From Candidatus Woesearchaeota archaeon (GTDB lineage: Archaea; Nanobdellota; Nanobdellia; Pacearchaeales; GW2011-AR1), in contig CAYQOK010000002.1 in NCBI GenBank assembly GCA_964419155.1, positions 7,705-59,919 on the forward strand: 52,215 nt of DNA, written 5' to 3'. A model generated the notes under the pieces. It was not told where the DNA came from, did not search any database, and worked only from the letters and a program-made list of their open reading frames with translations. The position numbers and the translations under genes were made by a program. Every line of letters begins with the position of its first letter. Within the stretch, counting starts at the first letter, position 1. Shown here piece by piece: positions 987-52,215 of the stretch.

Positions 987-1098
987 TAAATCTGATTAAT
1001 TTCAAAAACCTAAAAATCCACTTATAGCTAAGGCTTCTCTACTCAGATCATTTACTTATTATAAAAAGATTTTTATAACGAATAGATTTTAAAATATA

Positions 1099-1575
1099 AT
1101 GAAAAAAAGAGTTATTTTAATATTAATAATTATTTTTAATATTAGTTTTATAACTTCTTCAGAACCCATAATTAACCTGCCCCCTAAAATAATTAATTAT
1201 ACCTCTTTCTATGATGAAACTATTATTCAGGGCGATAATTTAACTTTTAATATATTTGCAACAGATAATGAAGATTTAGTTAATGATACATTAACTTATA
1301 AATGGTATTTAAATAATCTAGTAAAATCTTATGAAAATGTTTTTGAAATAAAAAATATTAGTTCAGGATTTCAAGAAATAAAGGTGGAAATTAGTGACGG
1401 AAATTTATCAATAAACCACAAATGGCAAATAAATGTAGCTACAAAAACCAAATATGAAATAAATAAAAAAGAGCCTTATTTCTTAATTCCCCCTTGGATG
1501 GGAATAGCAATAATAATTCTTTTAATACTAATAATTTTGTTTTATTATATTTTAAAAGAAATGAAAAAAGTTTAA
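1099..1575 (+). CDS. Membrane-anchored protein with a single Ig/PKD-like ectodomain
   Basis: Has an N-terminal hydrophobic signal, a beta-rich middle (LTYKWYLNN, EIKVEISDGN) and a C-terminal TM helix (GIAIIILLILIILFYYIL). Confidence 0.5.
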   Translation: MKKRVILILIIIFNISFITSSEPIINLPPKIINYTSFYDETIIQGDNLTFNIFATDNEDLVNDTLTYKWYLNNLVKSYENVFEIKNISSGFQEIKVEISDGNLSINHKWQINVATKTKYEINKKEPYFLIPPWMGIAIIILLILIILFYYILKEMKKV

Positions 1576-1581
1576 ACTATT

Positions 1582-2238
1582 ATGAATAATTCTAATATAA
1601 CCACCATAATTGAATCATTAAAAGAAAGTGTAAAAAACATAGAAGAAACAACATTAAACAAGAATTCAAAGAAATTTAATGAATTTCAAATGCTAATTGC
1701 ATGTATCATCTCATTACAAGCAAAAGATGAAAGTACAAAAGAAGCAGTAAAAAATTTATTTAAGTTAGGAAAATCACCTAAAGAAATTTTAAAAGTTCCA
1801 GACAAAAAAATTGAAAAAATATTATATAAAACAAGATTTAGGAAAAAGAAAACAAAAACAATTAAAAATATTTCAAAAATAATCTTAAAGAAATATAATA
1901 ATAAAGTACCTGATAATATTGATGAATTAATGTCTATAAAGGGTGTTGGCAAAAAAACAGCTAATATTGTTCTTTGTCTTTCATTTAATAAACCATTTAT
2001 TCCAGTTGATTCAAATATGCATAGAGTAATAAATAGAATAGGACTCTTTAAAAAAACAAAAAATCCAGAACAAACAGAAAAATTATTAATAAAAAATGTT
2101 CCTAAAACCTATTGGAAGGAATTAAACAGTATTTTTATGAGATTTGGAAAAAATTATTGCACTCCTATTTCTCCTTATTGTAGTAAATGTCCAATTAAGA
2201 AGAAATGTAAAAAAGTAAATGTAATCAAAAGCAGATAA
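1582..2238 (+). CDS. nth: Endonuclease III (HhH-GPD DNA glycosylase/AP lyase)
   Basis: Has the HhH motif LMSIKGVGKKTANIVL, a PVDSNMHRV segment and a C-terminal 4Fe-4S cluster loop C-x6-C-x2-C-x5-C (CTPISPYCSKCPIKKKC). Confidence 0.85.
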   Translation: MNNSNITTIIESLKESVKNIEETTLNKNSKKFNEFQMLIACIISLQAKDESTKEAVKNLFKLGKSPKEILKVPDKKIEKILYKTRFRKKKTKTIKNISKIILKKYNNKVPDNIDELMSIKGVGKKTANIVLCLSFNKPFIPVDSNMHRVINRIGLFKKTKNPEQTEKLLIKNVPKTYWKELNSIFMRFGKNYCTPISPYCSKCPIKKKCKKVNVIKSR

Positions 2239-46853: not shown

Positions 46854-47321
46854 TCAAAAAAGATTATTATGTTTTTTAACTGCAAAAAACCAACACTTTT
46901 CATTATCATATTTTGGATTAGATTTCCAAATCTTCTTAAAATAAGTTAATTTGTACTTATGTTCATCACCAAAAAACGGGTCATAAAAATAAATATACTT
47001 GCCATCAATTTTTTTTAAAATAGAATAATGATCAGTTTTTTCAGGAAGATAAAAATAACAAATTATAATTATAAAACCCTTCTTTTGATATTCTTTTAAG
47101 CTATTAATTGTTGCATTTCTCATTACAATATAATTTAATTTGAATTTTTCTGCAACAATTGGAAAACTTTTATGCCAAGTACCCCTTACTTTATTTGTGT
47201 TAAGTAATTTTGCAACTTGTTTTTCAGATTTTTTAAACCCACAAAATTCAAGAACCATCCTCATAGTAGAAGCCCCACAAGTATACTTGGTTTCTTGTTT
47301 ATGAAATGGAAATCTAGTCAT
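46854..47321 (-). CDS. Stand-alone C39-like papain-fold cysteine peptidase
   Basis: Has Q-x5-C (HKQETKYTCGASTMRMVL) near the N-terminus and a downstream His (KTDHYSIL), as in Peptidase_C39/C39_2 domains. No fused ABC transporter. Confidence 0.65.
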   Translation of the reverse strand: MTRFPFHKQETKYTCGASTMRMVLEFCGFKKSEKQVAKLLNTNKVRGTWHKSFPIVAEKFKLNYIVMRNATINSLKEYQKKGFIIIICYFYLPEKTDHYSILKKIDGKYIYFYDPFFGDEHKYKLTYFKKIWKSNPKYDNEKCWFFAVKKHNNLF

Positions 47322-48867: not shown

Positions 48868-49063
48868 TTTAAGCGATTTTCTGCGAGATGTCTAAAGGAT
48901 TTTTTTTCTCAAAAAAAAACCGCAAAGTTGTTCGAAGGCACTTGTATTAATTTTAAAAATGGCACTTCAGGACTGCGGGACGCTGTCAAAATAAATAAGA
49001 AATGTGTGCGTCTTCTTTGCTTCTTTCTTTCTAAGAAAGAGGGGGGCACTTTTCTTTTTACTT

Positions 49064-49258
49064 TCAAAACTCTCTCCATTCAATTCCCAAATCCATAAAG
49101 TCTATTTCTGCAAATCTATTAAGATTTATCCTTCCCTTTCCTGTAAGATACTTAAAAATTTCCATTGTTTGAATATTTGCTACCGCTCCAGCAATTGGTC
49201 CGAGGTTTCCCGTCTGTCTAATGTCTCTTATCTTTTCTAAATCTTTTAGAGTGTCCAT
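49064..49258 (-). CDS. C-terminal fragment of the E1-like (ThiF/MoeB) enzyme, separated by a frameshift
   Basis: GNLGPIAGAVANIQTMEIFKYLTG matches the conserved post-crossover helix of ThiF/MoeB. It overlaps the upstream ORF by 13 nt in a different frame. Confidence 0.65.
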   Translation of the reverse strand: MDTLKDLEKIRDIRQTGNLGPIAGAVANIQTMEIFKYLTGKGRINLNRFAEIDFMDLGIEWREF

Positions 49259-50073
49259 TTTTTTTGGTATTCTAAAAAATCATCAAAAGTTTTAGTGATT
49301 CCAGGGATAATGACTGGACCAACCATTCCTAAATGTAGATTATATCCTCCTGCAACACAATAAGCAACTTGGTGATGATTAGCATATTCATCAATGATTC
49401 TTGTTGTTTCTGCAACTGATGGAGAATCAGCACAATTTACTAGAAAATTACAACCAAAAACAATATCTTCTAAATCATGATTTGGTTCGACTCTTTTTTT
49501 GAAGGGAGCTATATTTGCATCCTTCAATTTTTCTTTTACAACATCCACTTTATACTTCCCCACATCCCCAGAATCAAAAAATAATTGTCTGTTAAAATTA
49601 CTTTTCTCTACGACATCAGGGTCAGTAATTCTTATCTCCCCCACACCAATTTGATACAGCCCATTTACAATCCAAGTTCCAATTCCACCAACTCCAAAAA
49701 CAGCAACTTTGGAATTCTTTATTCTCTTTTGTATCTCTAATGTTTCTTTCCTTGAATCTGTAAGTTCGTCCAAAAATAATAATTGTCTATAATGTCTTCC
49801 TTTTTCTAAATCAGATTCATATCTTCTAACAATCCCTTCTTTTTCTAAGGCATTTAAACAAGCATCTATATCTTGAGGACTATATTTAGAAGATAATCTT
49901 TCAGTTAAACCTTGTTCTGTTTGCTCAGAATCAAGGAAAGTAATCACATCCTTAACTAGAGAATCTACTTGAAATTTTTTTATTCTTCGTGTTGCAGTTG
50001 AAATAAAGATATAGTTATCTTCAGTATCTTTCAAGACATACAAGGAATCTTTAATTTTCAACTTACTACTCAT
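49246..50073 (-). CDS. E1-like ThiF/MoeB-family adenylyltransferase with N-terminal PqqD/RRE-like winged-helix domain (truncated by frameshift at an A8 run)
   Basis: Has the nucleotide loop VAVFGVGGIGTW and ITDPDVVEKSNFNRQ. The N-terminal 90 aa have beta-beta-beta plus helices ending LNALEKEGIV, as in PqqD/RRE. Confidence 0.7.
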   Translation of the reverse strand: MSSKLKIKDSLYVLKDTEDNYIFISTATRRIKKFQVDSLVKDVITFLDSEQTEQGLTERLSSKYSPQDIDACLNALEKEGIVRRYESDLEKGRHYRQLLFLDELTDSRKETLEIQKRIKNSKVAVFGVGGIGTWIVNGLYQIGVGEIRITDPDVVEKSNFNRQLFFDSGDVGKYKVDVVKEKLKDANIAPFKKRVEPNHDLEDIVFGCNFLVNCADSPSVAETTRIIDEYANHHQVAYCVAGGYNLHLGMVGPVIIPGITKTFDDFLEYQKKWTL

Positions 50074-50641
50074 TTGAAATTATTTCTCCATATTTGATAT
50101 TTTTACTATTTGGTTCTAATAAAATCTCTCCAGAGTCATCTATCGGGGCGATAATTTTGTAATTTTTTAATCTTTTCCTCAATAAAGAATCTTTTCTTAA
50201 ATGCCAACAACCAAGAATAATAATTATTGGAAGCTTTGTTTTTGATTTATATTCCAAAATCTTTGAGAGATGGTATTTCTCCCTTTTTTCAACTAAATTA
50301 TTTAATTTTTCTTCCTCTTCTCTTGTAAGCCCTTTTTGATTTTTTATTTTTTTTTGCAAATTTTCATCAAATCCGAAATTATGAAAATCAATCCCAATTA
50401 ATTTAATCTTTTTGTCAAAACATAATTTTATCAGTTTTTCAACTTCATTAAAGGAAGTCACATCAGAAATAAATTTTTTCTCGAAAATTTCTTTAAATTG
50501 GTCTGCTTGTTCTAATTTTAAATCTTCTAATTCTTCACTTAAGATAAATTCTGGATTCATAATGTTAATAATTTCTTTTTGTTTTGAGAAATCATCTAAA
50601 AAAAAGTGAGTACTACCTATAAAAATGAAAGATAAAGCCAT
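50066..50641 (-). CDS. Putative TraB/PrgY/Tiki-superfamily metalloprotease-like protein (tentative)
   Basis: Has an N-terminal G-x-x-H (FIGSTHF), acidic ILSEEL and a C-terminal G-x-x-H (ILGCWHL), in the order seen in TraB/Tiki. GGAG lies 8 nt before the ATG. An 8-nt overlap with the E1-like gene suggests translational coupling. Confidence 0.4.
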   Translation of the reverse strand: MALSFIFIGSTHFFLDDFSKQKEIINIMNPEFILSEELEDLKLEQADQFKEIFEKKFISDVTSFNEVEKLIKLCFDKKIKLIGIDFHNFGFDENLQKKIKNQKGLTREEEEKLNNLVEKREKYHLSKILEYKSKTKLPIIIILGCWHLRKDSLLRKRLKNYKIIAPIDDSGEILLEPNSKNIKYGEIISNE

Positions 50642-50660
50642 TTTTTACTCCAAGAAAGAT

Positions 50661-50813
50661 TTACATCCAATATTTAATACTTGTTGGACCTGCGTAAACC
50701 TCATCTTTAACTTTTCGAAGCCCCTCATAAAGAGGTTTTTCTATTGTAAGGTAAGGTCTTGCTTCTTCTTTTCTTGGTGTAACTCCTTCCAAAGTTTTTT
50801 CAAGGGTTTCCAT
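50661..50813 (-). CDS. Unannotated 50-aa peptide ORF, first gene of the operon (candidate precursor peptide)
   Basis: Hand translation gives METLEKTLEGVTPRKEEARPYLTIEKPLYEGLRKVKDEVYAGPTSIKYWM. It ends 19 nt upstream of the next ATG, and a TATA-like box lies upstream. Confidence 0.45.
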   Translation of the reverse strand: METLEKTLEGVTPRKEEARPYLTIEKPLYEGLRKVKDEVYAGPTSIKYWM

Positions 50814-50860
50814 ATTTTAAGAGTAAATAGACTCCTTTATATATTTTATTATTCTGAATG
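50814..50860 (-). promoter_or_regulatory. Putative archaeal promoter of the peptide/TraB-like/E1-like operon
   Basis: The minus strand reads AATAAAATATATAAAGGAGTCTATTTACTCTTAAAATATG. An A/T TATA-like box lies about 25-35 nt before the ATG. Confidence 0.3.
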
Positions 50861-51008
50861 TGAAAAATGCCCAATTAAATCTCAAAATCTTTGATTTTGA
50901 CCATCTGTTTTTCTGAAAGAAAAACCAAGCTCACATCTCCAAATTAGGGGTGGTTGGTCGGGGGATGGCTAAAGAGAGATTTTAGCTATTTTTAATTCCT
51001 TAAGTTTA

Positions 51009-51059
51009 GTGCCTTCAAACAATTAGACATAACATTTGGTTAAACAACCCGAAGGGCAC
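51009..51059. repeat. Hairpin GTGCCTTC ... GAAGGGCAC with one extra G
   Basis: Read directly. The CGAAGGCA core recurs at 48933-48941 and 52182-52190. Confidence 0.5.
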
Positions 51060-51158
51060 GAGTGGAGCATAGCGACCTCCAAAAATTCAATTTTGATGGA
51101 GAAGTCTGCAATGCTTCGTAGTCGGTTAAGCCCGATGTTCTATTCTTCCGATAGGATT

Positions 51159-51197
51159 GGATTTTAATGCAATGTTCGGACAAAGTCCGAAAAATCC
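51159..51197. repeat. Nested hairpin present only in the left arm (insertion relative to the right arm)
   Basis: GGATTTT aatgcaatg TTCGGAC aaa GTCCGAA AAATCC. This segment lies between modules that are adjacent in the right arm. Confidence 0.55.
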
Positions 51198-51272
51198 AAA
51201 GTTCAGAAAACGGCCGTCTTTTAAATGAACGTAGTGATACATCAAGACACAAAATTGAGAGCCACGAGCTAA

Positions 51273-51917
51273 TTATTTTTTAATATTTTCTACCCAATTA
51301 GGAATATTGTTACTCTTTAGATTTTTAAATTCTGTTTGGCACCTTAATTTACCTTTATTTTCAAGATTATTACATATTTTAATATTATCTTGTGAGTAAG
51401 CAACATCAACATAACACTCAACTAAATGATATTCATCTAATTGTTTGCATAATTCAACATTTTCCTTCAATTGAGCAATATCTGATATACAATGATATTT
51501 CCAATATTCCGCATCCTTTCCTTCAAAAATACATTGAGTAACACTTTGACTTGAAACGGCTATGCAATACTGTTTTATGTATGCAGAAAAATCATAATCG
51601 TCAATCTTATCGTCTGATTTGATATTTTGACAAATAGTTGGATTCTGTGTGTTCCTCGCAATCCAACCGTAACATCTGTTAACATAATTACTTGCTATGG
51701 AAGTGTTATATTCTGTAGCGGGATGATTTTCACACAGTTTAATATCTTTATAACCGTTTGAAGCTAGATCTTGATAACAAGCTATATCTGTTTGCTCACA
51801 ATCTTCAATTTGTCTTGGAAAATTTGAATTTTCTGTTTTTTGATTTGTACATCCAATAATAATTAACAATCCTACTACAAGCAATATTACCAGAAAAATA
51901 ATTATGTTTCTTCCCAC
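51273..51917 (-). CDS. Cys-rich secreted protein, probable lipoprotein
   Basis: Has a signal peptide ending in the lipobox-like IIIGC, then about 16 Cys in recurring C-x(n)-C helical-looking repeats. Confidence 0.65.
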   Translation of the reverse strand: MGRNIIIFLVILLVVGLLIIIGCTNQKTENSNFPRQIEDCEQTDIACYQDLASNGYKDIKLCENHPATEYNTSIASNYVNRCYGWIARNTQNPTICQNIKSDDKIDDYDFSAYIKQYCIAVSSQSVTQCIFEGKDAEYWKYHCISDIAQLKENVELCKQLDEYHLVECYVDVAYSQDNIKICNNLENKGKLRCQTEFKNLKSNNIPNWVENIKK

Positions 51918-51958
51918 ACTGGAATCATTAATTAAGATTTATATAAACCTTTCTAGTG

Positions 51959-52209
51959 GCTCGTGGCTCTATCTGTTTTTCGGCCGTTTTCTGAATTGAA
52001 TAGAACATCGGGCTTAAGGGAGGTTCAATTTCCTCGAAAAAATTCTCCTCGTGAAACAGAGCTGAGAATTTTTTCAGAGCTGAAATTGAATTTGGGTGTA
52101 GTGAGGTGCAACCGAACGAAACCCTTTAAGCCCTGTTAGTTTCTTTTTACGAAGTAAAAATTGATTTTTAGTGCAACGATGCCGAAGGCAAAAAATCAAA
52201 GTTTTTGAG
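51959..52209 (-). repeat. Right arm of the inverted repeat bracketing gene 51273..51917
   Basis: Contains GCTCGTGGCTCT (51959-51970), CGGCCGTTTTCTGAA (51981-51995), GAATAGAACATCGGGCTTAA (51998-52017) and AAAAATCAAAGTTTTTGAG (52191-52209). These are reverse complements of the left-arm modules. Confidence 0.8.
52010..52133. repeat. Long three-stem imperfect hairpin (CTTAAG-bounded) in spacer R5
   Basis: GGGCTTAAGGG (52010-20) pairs with CCCTTTAAGCCC (52122-33). TTCAATTTC (52024-32) pairs with GAAATTGAA (52082-90). GAAAAAATTCTC (52036-47) pairs perfectly with GAGAATTTTTTC (52064-75). Confidence 0.7.
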
Positions 52210-52215
52210 AATGCC

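Follow-up and report, generated by a model that had tools for sequence, protein, structure and literature searches.

The stretch of DNA analyzed here, referred to as the window, comprises 52,215 nucleotides of a contig from a Candidatus Woesearchaeota archaeon. On its minus strand, within 49064–50860, three genes lie behind a TATA-like box, as direct reading of the sequence confirmed for a layout proposed in an initial annotation: a gene for a 50-residue peptide, a gene for a 191-residue protein resembling Tiki/TraB hydrolases, and a gene for an E1-like (ThiF-type) adenylyltransferase. This cassette is a candidate system for producing a peptide that is made on the ribosome and modified after translation (RiPP), in which the peptide would be recognized through an RiPP recognition element (RRE) at the N-terminus of the adenylyltransferase. 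The features of the locus, from upstream to downstream along the minus strand, are as follows.

50814–51035 (−): conserved non-coding 5′ flank with two hairpins or palindromes, recognized by nucleotide identity in relatives
about 50836–50850 (−): TATA-like promoter box AATAAAATATATAAA, 22–35 nt upstream of the peptide ATG, read directly
50661–50813 (−): peptide gene, 50 aa, from the open reading frame (ORF) and homologous small ORFs elsewhere
50642–50660 (−): 19-nt spacer atctttcttGGAGtaaaaa with a GGAG Shine–Dalgarno-like motif ahead of the 191-aa gene, read directly
50066–50641 (−): gene for a 191-aa hydrolase-like protein of the Tiki/TraB/ChaN/Ere superfamily, from a structure model, motifs and the Pfam matches of distant relatives
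49246–50073 (−): 5′ part of the RRE-ThiF-like adenylyltransferase gene (275-aa ORF; residues 1–272 of the intact protein), from Pfam, a PDB profile search, and AlphaFold2 (AF2) with Foldseek
49258–49265 (−): A8 homopolymer that splits the adenylyltransferase gene, a 1-nt deletion relative to an intact A9, from alignment with the homologous loci L053, L007 and L009
49064–49258 (−): 3′ part of the adenylyltransferase gene (last 64 residues, −1 frame in the window), from positions 174–223 of the Pfam ThiF profile
48905–49063 (−): conserved 3′ flank with the hairpin GACAGCGTCCCGCAGTC and a T9 run (48910–48918) at its end, from nucleotide identity in relatives

The 50-aa ORF and the GGAG-containing 19-nt gap that follows it were verified, as were the start of the adenylyltransferase gene at 50073 and its 8-nt overlap with the 191-aa gene.

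The peptide of the window (METLEKTLEGVTPRKEEARPYLTIEKPLYEGLRKVKDEVYAGPTSIKYWM, 50 aa) has no match in Pfam or NCBIfam. A profile search returned 262 database relatives, which share a layout of a conserved ME.LE start, a middle part variable in both length and sequence, a Y.GL..VE(D/E)..Y block and a G.TSIKYWM end. Residues of the TSIKYWM motif are named here by their distance from the terminal Met, as Thr-6, Ser-5, Ile-4, Lys-3, Tyr-2 and Trp-1. Among the 120 relatives listed of the 262, the terminus is YWM in 117 and FWM in 1, the last residue is Met in 118, and Thr-6, Ser-5 and Ile-4 are kept in 118, 117 and 114, respectively. Position −3 is occupied by Lys in 107, Arg in 8, Met in 2, Ser in 2 and Val in 1. 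In the conserved C-terminal part, the Thr, Ser, Ile, Tyr and Gly codons vary synonymously with the amino acids fixed, indicating that it is the protein that is under selection. A pattern search identified homologous small ORFs in 38 of 46 GTDB loci, and tblastn added further ones; in every locus with enough sequence, an ORF of 45–68 aa adjoins the other two genes on the same strand. A small ORF is therefore conserved at the homologous loci, its TSIKYWM end being almost invariant; this was the point on which the initial annotation had staked its reading of the peptide. Judged by this conservation, the peptide gene is real, and the layout of its product is the usual pattern of a leader plus a core.

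In the E1-like protein, the GVGGIGTW nucleotide loop and the DxDxVxxSNxNRQ motif (DPDVVEKSNFNRQ) are both present, as initially annotated. The adenylation-domain motifs are intact throughout, with GVGGIGTW, DPD, SNFNRQ, GKYK and NCADS invariant across 48 homologues, and Pfam ThiF (PF00899) matches residues 113–265 with an E-value of 6.9e-32, while residues 1–110 have no Pfam match. The ThiF, MoeB and UbaA models of NCBIfam give partial matches far below their cut-offs (best 77.7 bits against 275). When a profile of the 48 homologues was compared with all PDB sequences, MccB ranked first (2.6e-27, query residues 63–310) and PaaA second (3.3e-24), with ThiF and MoeB at about 1e-15. An AF2 model of the enzyme (pLDDT 90.4) has an N-terminal module of four β-strands followed by three α-helices at residues 4–78. 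In a Foldseek search of the PDB with this model, the 26 top matches consist entirely of MccB and PaaA chains, with 304–364 aligned columns and a query TM-score (TMq) of 0.65–0.75, whereas ThiF, MoeB and UBA5 align over just ~250 columns with a TMq of ~0.55. The assignment of the RRE domain is based on this whole-protein superposition on MccB and PaaA. The AF2 fold and the full-length superposition agree with the earlier description of the first ~90 residues as an RRE-like winged helix. The further claim that the enzyme does not resemble partners of MoaD or ThiS also stands, in that MccB and PaaA are closest by both profile and fold and no sulfur-carrier gene is a conserved neighbor. From the profile ranking and the full-length structural alignment, the enzyme is classed as an MccB/PaaA-type protein with an N-terminal peptide-clamp (RRE) domain, and not as an E1 that partners ThiS or MoaD. 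The enzyme lacks the CxxC Zn motif found in MccB, ThiF and MoeB, the archaeal family having KTFDDF at the position of CYEC in MccB, and the equivalent of the E1 crossover loop (residues ~243–262) contains no Cys in the family consensus.

The 191-aa protein of the window has no match in Pfam or NCBIfam, and its family profile found no match among PDB sequences even at E≤10. The motifs noticed earlier (FIGSTHF, ILSEEL and ILGCWHL) were confirmed in its ORF. In both family alignments T11, H12, E36, E39, R120, G144, W146 and L148 are invariant, and E121 and H147 are invariant or almost so; the ordered GxxH...E...R...GxxH signature is kept, and the matching columns are conserved in 78 distant relatives. 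The family is small, with only 165 relatives at E≤1e-3 in a profile search of 1.84 billion representatives. Among the 78 distant relatives, 36 match PF04187 (ChaN, Tiki superfamily) and 9 match PF01963 (TraB/PrgY/GumN) at E≤1e-3, and the family member P0392 exceeds the PF01963 gathering score (28.5 bits against 26.8). Cassette homologues in L015 and L046 give sub-threshold matches to PF01963/PF04187. With an AF2 model of the 191-aa protein (pLDDT 94), the best Foldseek matches besides generic KaiC-type P-loop ATPases are RRSP (6a8j/6a7h), ChaN (2g5g), HopBA1 (5t09), BcR135/136 and EreC, all of which we take to be members of the Tiki/TraB/ChaN/erythromycin-esterase superfamily. Fold, transitive sequence evidence through the distant relatives, and motif together support the assignment of the 191-aa protein to the Tiki/TraB superfamily, in line with the initial annotation. 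By analogy, it may act as a protease, or in immunity, ester hydrolysis or editing as in the erythromycin esterases.

A scan of GTDB species representatives yielded 46 loci, nearly all labeled Nanoarchaeota, Woesearchaeota or Pacearchaeota. In at least 46 Nanoarchaeota species genomes, each informative locus has all three genes linked, and their co-occurrence, which the initial annotation had put forward as a check, held in essentially every locus with adequate flanking sequence. The co-occurrence of the three genes on one strand is far beyond chance. One lineage (L001/L025) has the genes in the order peptide / E1 / Tiki-like; elsewhere the order is peptide / Tiki-like / E1. When ORFs of at least 70 aa from 47 loci were clustered, the shared genes were solely E1 (47 loci) and Tiki-like (44 loci). 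No transporter, YcaO, E2, JAMM or ThiS/MoaD gene is a conserved neighbor among the 47 loci, which upholds the earlier remark that YcaO, E2, JAB and ubiquitin-like (Ubl) genes ending in GG are absent, and none of the genes next to the cassette in the window recurs at other cassette loci.

Taken with the gene neighborhood, these assignments favor an RiPP system, to which we assign a probability of about 0.72: a self-contained three-gene cassette for a ribosomal, post-translationally modified peptide, representing an archaeal family of RRE-ThiF-like ('TLAT') RiPP systems. All four checks bearing on the initial proposal of an RiPP-like system, on the N-terminal domain, the small ORF, sulfur carriers and the Tiki assignment, came out in its favor. 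The features of TLAT-RiPP systems that are testable from sequence or model are present, namely the adenylation motifs, an RRE-like domain and an adjoining precursor gene, which would place the enzyme among MccB, PaaA, GrcB, EnfB and IndF.

We propose a mechanism modeled on the characterized TLAT-RiPP enzymes (PMC12150305, PMC11256085, PMC12250964, PMC12596934), in which binding, adenylation site, nucleophile, cleavage and biological role are all inferred by analogy. In this pathway, the N-terminal winged-helix domain would bind the conserved leader of the peptide (ME.LE ... Y.GL..VED..Y), and the invariant C-terminal core T-S-I-K-Y-W-M would thread into the adenylation site. With ATP and Mg2+, a carboxylate, most likely the α-carboxylate of the terminal Met, would be converted to an acyl-adenylate, followed by attack of an intramolecular nucleophile, which could be the hydroxyl of Thr-6 or Tyr-2, the indole nitrogen of Trp-1 or, as in EnfB, a backbone amide. 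Lys-3 is excluded as the nucleophile, since it is replaced by Arg, Met, Ser or Val in some peptides. The expected outcome would be a small C-terminal ring formed with net loss of water. Finally, the translationally coupled Tiki/TraB hydrolase, whose His-Glu-Arg-His set is intact, would remove the leader or, less likely, open or edit the product. A precedent for a role as protease comes from graspetide loci, where Tiki/TraB proteins are predicted to be the leader peptidases (PMC8939145).

A more far-reaching version of this proposal is possible but doubtful. In it, the cassette would make a peptide-derived molecule specific to DPANN Nanoarchaeota, with TSIKYWM cyclized by chemistry new for ThiF-like enzymes (for example, a macrolactone from Thr to the C-terminus or acylation of Trp by the adjacent residue), the 191-aa protein would be the first Tiki/TraB RiPP leader peptidase, and the product would be a conserved cofactor or a symbiont–host signal. 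A cofactor or signal, not a variable antibiotic, would fit the invariant core and the lack of a linked exporter or immunity gene.

Several observations weigh against the RiPP interpretation. The N-terminal domain of the enzyme, searched separately, gives no PqqD/RRE Pfam match, and the Foldseek scores linking the 191-aa protein to its superfamily are modest (E from 1.3e-3 for 6a8j to 0.4, TMq 0.39–0.51). The enzyme gene of the window is itself frameshifted, the copy as assembled being broken or mis-sequenced. Within the core, position −3 is replaced in ~10% of the listed peptides, and, Trp being next to the C-terminus, the ring of an indolylamide like that of IndF would be 9-membered and strained. 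The near-complete constancy of the core from one species to another is not what typical antimicrobial RiPPs show, and the 47 loci share no transporter, immunity or regulator gene alongside the cassette, an unusual situation for secreted RiPPs.

The closest characterized system is MccB/microcin C7 of E. coli (3H5N, 6OM4). Like the archaeal enzyme, MccB combines an N-terminal peptide clamp or RRE with a ThiF-type adenylation domain; it is the top match by profile and by fold (TMq ~0.75 over the full length), and a short ribosomal peptide gene lies directly upstream in both cases. The archaeal precursor, in contrast, ends in Met and not in the obligatory Asn of microcin C, which makes the succinimide/phosphoramidate chemistry impossible; not one of the 120 listed peptides ends in Asn, bearing out the earlier remark that the system is not microcin C-like. 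The precursors also differ in size, the archaeal one having ~50 aa including a leader and that of microcin C being a heptapeptide, and the archaeal enzyme lacks the CxxC Zn site. Neither an MccC exporter nor MccD/E/F tailoring or immunity genes are conserved beside the cassette in the 47 loci. The second-best relative, PaaA of the pantocin A pathway (5FF5; E 3.3e-24, TMq 0.75), is likewise an RRE-ThiF enzyme acting on a short (~30-aa) precursor, but activates Glu side chains in an EEN motif, whereas the archaeal peptides lack EEN and conserve their extreme C-terminus.

By their descriptions, IndF/IndA from Streptococcus pneumoniae and EnfB/EnfA (enterofaecin) also pair an RRE-ThiF enzyme with a precursor having a conserved aromatic or hydrophobic C-terminus. 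In these bacterial TLAT-RiPPs, NWYFI is converted to a Trp-Ile indolylamide and WIVI to an imide (PMC12150305, PMC11256085, PMC12250964); the terminal carboxylate is adenylated and then cyclized, and the minimal clusters include a peptidase (PMC12150305, PMC11256085). The archaeal cassette differs in its TSIKYWM core with Trp next to the C-terminus, in a partner peptidase of the Tiki/TraB superfamily instead of an M16 peptidase, in having no linked transporter, and in its archaeal host. The fold and the ordered GxxH...E...R...GxxH signature of the Tiki/TraB/PrgY/ChaN/Ere superfamily recur in the 191-aa protein, which, however, is much shorter (~190 aa) than TraB or Ere, is itself below Pfam thresholds and forms a small separate clade. 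The Ubl and sulfur-carrier E1 systems (ThiF-ThiS, MoeB-MoaD, UbaA-SAMP) are less similar, in that the partner here is a ~50-aa peptide ending in YWM and no β-grasp Gly-Gly gene is present in the 47 loci.

An invariant C-terminus is also a property of Ubl tags, and an unlikely alternative is that the peptide serves as a ubiquitin- or Pup-like tag: the E1-like enzyme would adenylate the C-terminal Met of a disordered 50-aa peptide and ligate it to the amine of a protein, a lipid or a small molecule, and the Tiki-like hydrolase would remove the tag. In vitro, the related TLAT enzyme EnfB uses free primary amines to amidate the C-terminus of its peptide (PMC11256085); the cassette has no linked exporter, and a core that is invariant across species fits a conserved intracellular partner. 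Against this, a β-grasp fold would call for a longer peptide with a less variable middle, the peptide has no Gly-Gly end, and the enzyme groups with MccB and PaaA and not with UbaA, MoeB or ThiF, lacks a Cys in the crossover-loop equivalent (~243–262) of the family consensus, and has no linked E2 or JAMM gene.

Quite improbable, in our estimate, is a conflict module (a toxin/antitoxin pair or anti-virus defense) with the E1-like and Tiki-like proteins as effectors and the small protein as regulator or antidote. The genomic contexts of the cassette are variable, with conserved non-coding flanks of its own, an IS110-like transposase gene adjoins it at one locus, E1-domain proteins occur in CBASS- and Bil-type defense, and Tiki folds occur in bacterial toxins (RRSP, HopBA1). 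PADLOC, however, reported no defense system, giving generic E1-domain matches only (≤31.8 bits) and nothing for the other two proteins, and no cassette was found on viral contigs in IMG/VR; the logic of an enzyme and its substrate is what the RRE-like domain, together with the invariant end of the peptide, points to. Least probable, and already largely refuted, is a sulfur-carrier or cofactor pathway of the ThiF/MoeB/SAMP type, in which the E1 would activate a carrier so that a thiocarboxylate can form (as for thiamine, molybdopterin or tRNA thiolation), as automatic annotations of homologues ('molybdopterin/thiamine biosynthesis adenylyltransferase' or 'SAMP-activating enzyme E1') and the partial NCBIfam ThiF/MoeB matches would have it, but every one of those matches is far under its cut-off, the enzyme shares the N-terminal peptide clamp of MccB and PaaA, and there is no ThiS/MoaD-like neighbor, GG terminus, rhodanese domain or CxxC Zn site.

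To our knowledge, RRE-ThiF ('TLAT') enzymes are a young and fast-growing class in which every characterized member has given new chemistry (phosphoramidate, thiolactone, imide, indolylamide). The cassette would add to it an archaeal family found in dozens of genome-reduced DPANN species, with a near-invariant modified end and an unusual Tiki-type partner. In the searchable literature, published genome mining for TLAT-RiPPs covered bacteria only (bacterial RefSeq). Archaea, TraB and Tiki go unmentioned in the searchable reviews and genome-mining articles on ThiF-like RiPP enzymes, as does ThiF in a survey of archaeal RiPPs, and the KYWM/TSIKYWM motif appears in no relevant paper of the searchable literature. 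Nor did that literature on Tiki/TraB and RiPPs, on RiPPs or ThiF in DPANN archaea, or on ThiF-like enzymes or the RRE in Nanoarchaeota, Woesearchaeota or Pacearchaeota contain a description of the cassette. What looks new is the domain of life, the precursor family with its invariant core, and the partner enzyme, the logic being already known from bacteria. DPANN archaea retain very few accessory pathways, and a cassette conserved among them hints at a role in the symbiotic lifestyle. As a minimal system of three genes in ~1.8 kb, it is amenable to heterologous expression.

In the window, the E1-like gene is broken at the A8 run into the 275-aa ORF (49246–50073) and a 64-aa ORF (49064–49258), the latter collinear with the C-termini of the homologues P0001, P0098 and P0105. 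Adding one A restores a 336-aa product (...EYQKK-MDTLK...) that is 99% identical to P0001, and more than 100 full-length homologues among the matches listed are continuous, at ~336 aa. The near-identical (99%) contig L053 has A9 at the same site, and the more distant L007 and L009 have AAAAAAGG, from which we conclude that the window copy carries a 1-nt homopolymer deletion. Programmed frameshifting was considered as the main explanation, since the site contains an A_AAA_AAA slippery heptamer and a −1 slip restores the wild-type sequence, but was set aside in view of the in-frame A9 of L053 and the AAAAAAGG of the others. The A8 run is most likely a sequencing or assembly indel, or a strain-level lesion, rather than a conserved programmed frameshift.

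At the 22 homologous loci inspected, a TTTAAATA/TATATAAA-type box is found at the matching distance upstream of the peptide start, and the box AATAAAATATATAAA of the window is inferred to act as the promoter. The ~220-nt 5′ flank has 76–90% nucleotide identity in L055, L007, L009 and L010 despite differing upstream genes. It contains the hairpin TTTTTCT-TTC-AGAAAAA, invariant among the relatives compared, and a second stem, TCAAAATC-AAA-GATTTTGA, with a four-pair AAAA/TTTT swap in 2 of 5 sequences; this palindrome or hairpin region could be an operator or a structured leader. Downstream, the ~150-nt 3′ flank is 87–90% identical at the nucleotide level to its counterparts in L007, L009 and L010 and is matched in part by L011 and L051, and the oligo-T run at its end (T9, 48910–48918) suggests a likely archaeal terminator. 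Short pieces of the 3′ flank also match sequence on the opposite side of the cassette in L007, L012 and L056. No known RNA family was found in the flanks (Rfam). The conservation of the flanks, though neighboring genes differ, suggests that the cassette moves as a unit carrying its own control regions. At L015, a gene for a 330-aa IS110-like transposase (1086–2078, minus strand) lies directly upstream of the peptide gene, fitting the variable genomic context and possible mobility of the cassette.

Three cassette loci, L024, L042 and L049, lie in metagenome-assembled genomes labeled 'bacterium', 'Methanosarcinales' and 'Gammaproteobacteria'. Their 56–68% identity to Nanoarchaeota proteins and identical synteny make mis-binned DPANN contigs more likely than true transfers. 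On the Pacearchaeota contig JBBDJR010000004.1 (L004/L008), YcaO and nitroreductase genes lie ~4 kb from the cassette (L004 10747–12694), probably a separate RiPP locus of azoline or thioamide type that is not conserved with the cassette.

In a sub-branch outside the window, a fourth gene (~294–312 aa) separates the YWM-peptide gene from a more divergent Tiki-like gene (L015 2420–3352; L045 2435–3370; L046 2450–3382; L056 3001–3885). Its product has no match in Pfam or NCBIfam, and carries YD(I/Q)xSDxH...NGxPT and (E/D)DLIDL...KTTxP motifs that recall the Asp-rich (FARM/SARM, first and second aspartate-rich motif) motifs of polyprenyl synthases. A profile search of the PDB gave 10 weak matches (E 0.2–2), 6 of them to polyprenyl synthases, and hhalign against an approximate sequence of E. 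coli IspA gave a probability of 0.2. The identification of the 311-aa protein as a ComQ-like prenyltransferase was not adopted, the profile matches being non-significant and the IspA alignment unsupportive; from its motifs, the gene may nevertheless be listed as a candidate for a ComQ-like peptide prenyltransferase.

Two further features lie near the cassette in the window. A stand-alone 155-aa Peptidase_C39 protein (Pfam 39 bits, cut-off 22) is encoded at 46854–47321 on the minus strand, 1.7 kb downstream of the E1 gene. It was considered as a leader peptidase and rejected, as it occurs near no other cassette and the residue before the conserved Thr is often Pro, Lys, Arg or Tyr, which leaves no double-glycine site; it is probably unrelated to the cassette. 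On the other side, the intergenic stretches 50900–51270 and 51920–52215 have no long ORF, a G+C content of 0.37–0.40 against ~0.27 nearby, and no Rfam match. The gene between them (51273–51917), for a 214-aa Cys-rich protein with a signal-peptide-like feature, is bracketed by a perfect 20-nt inverted repeat, TTAAGCCCGATGTTCTATTC (51126–51145 / 51998–52017), and the repeat-bracketed region could be a non-coding RNA or a small mobile element.

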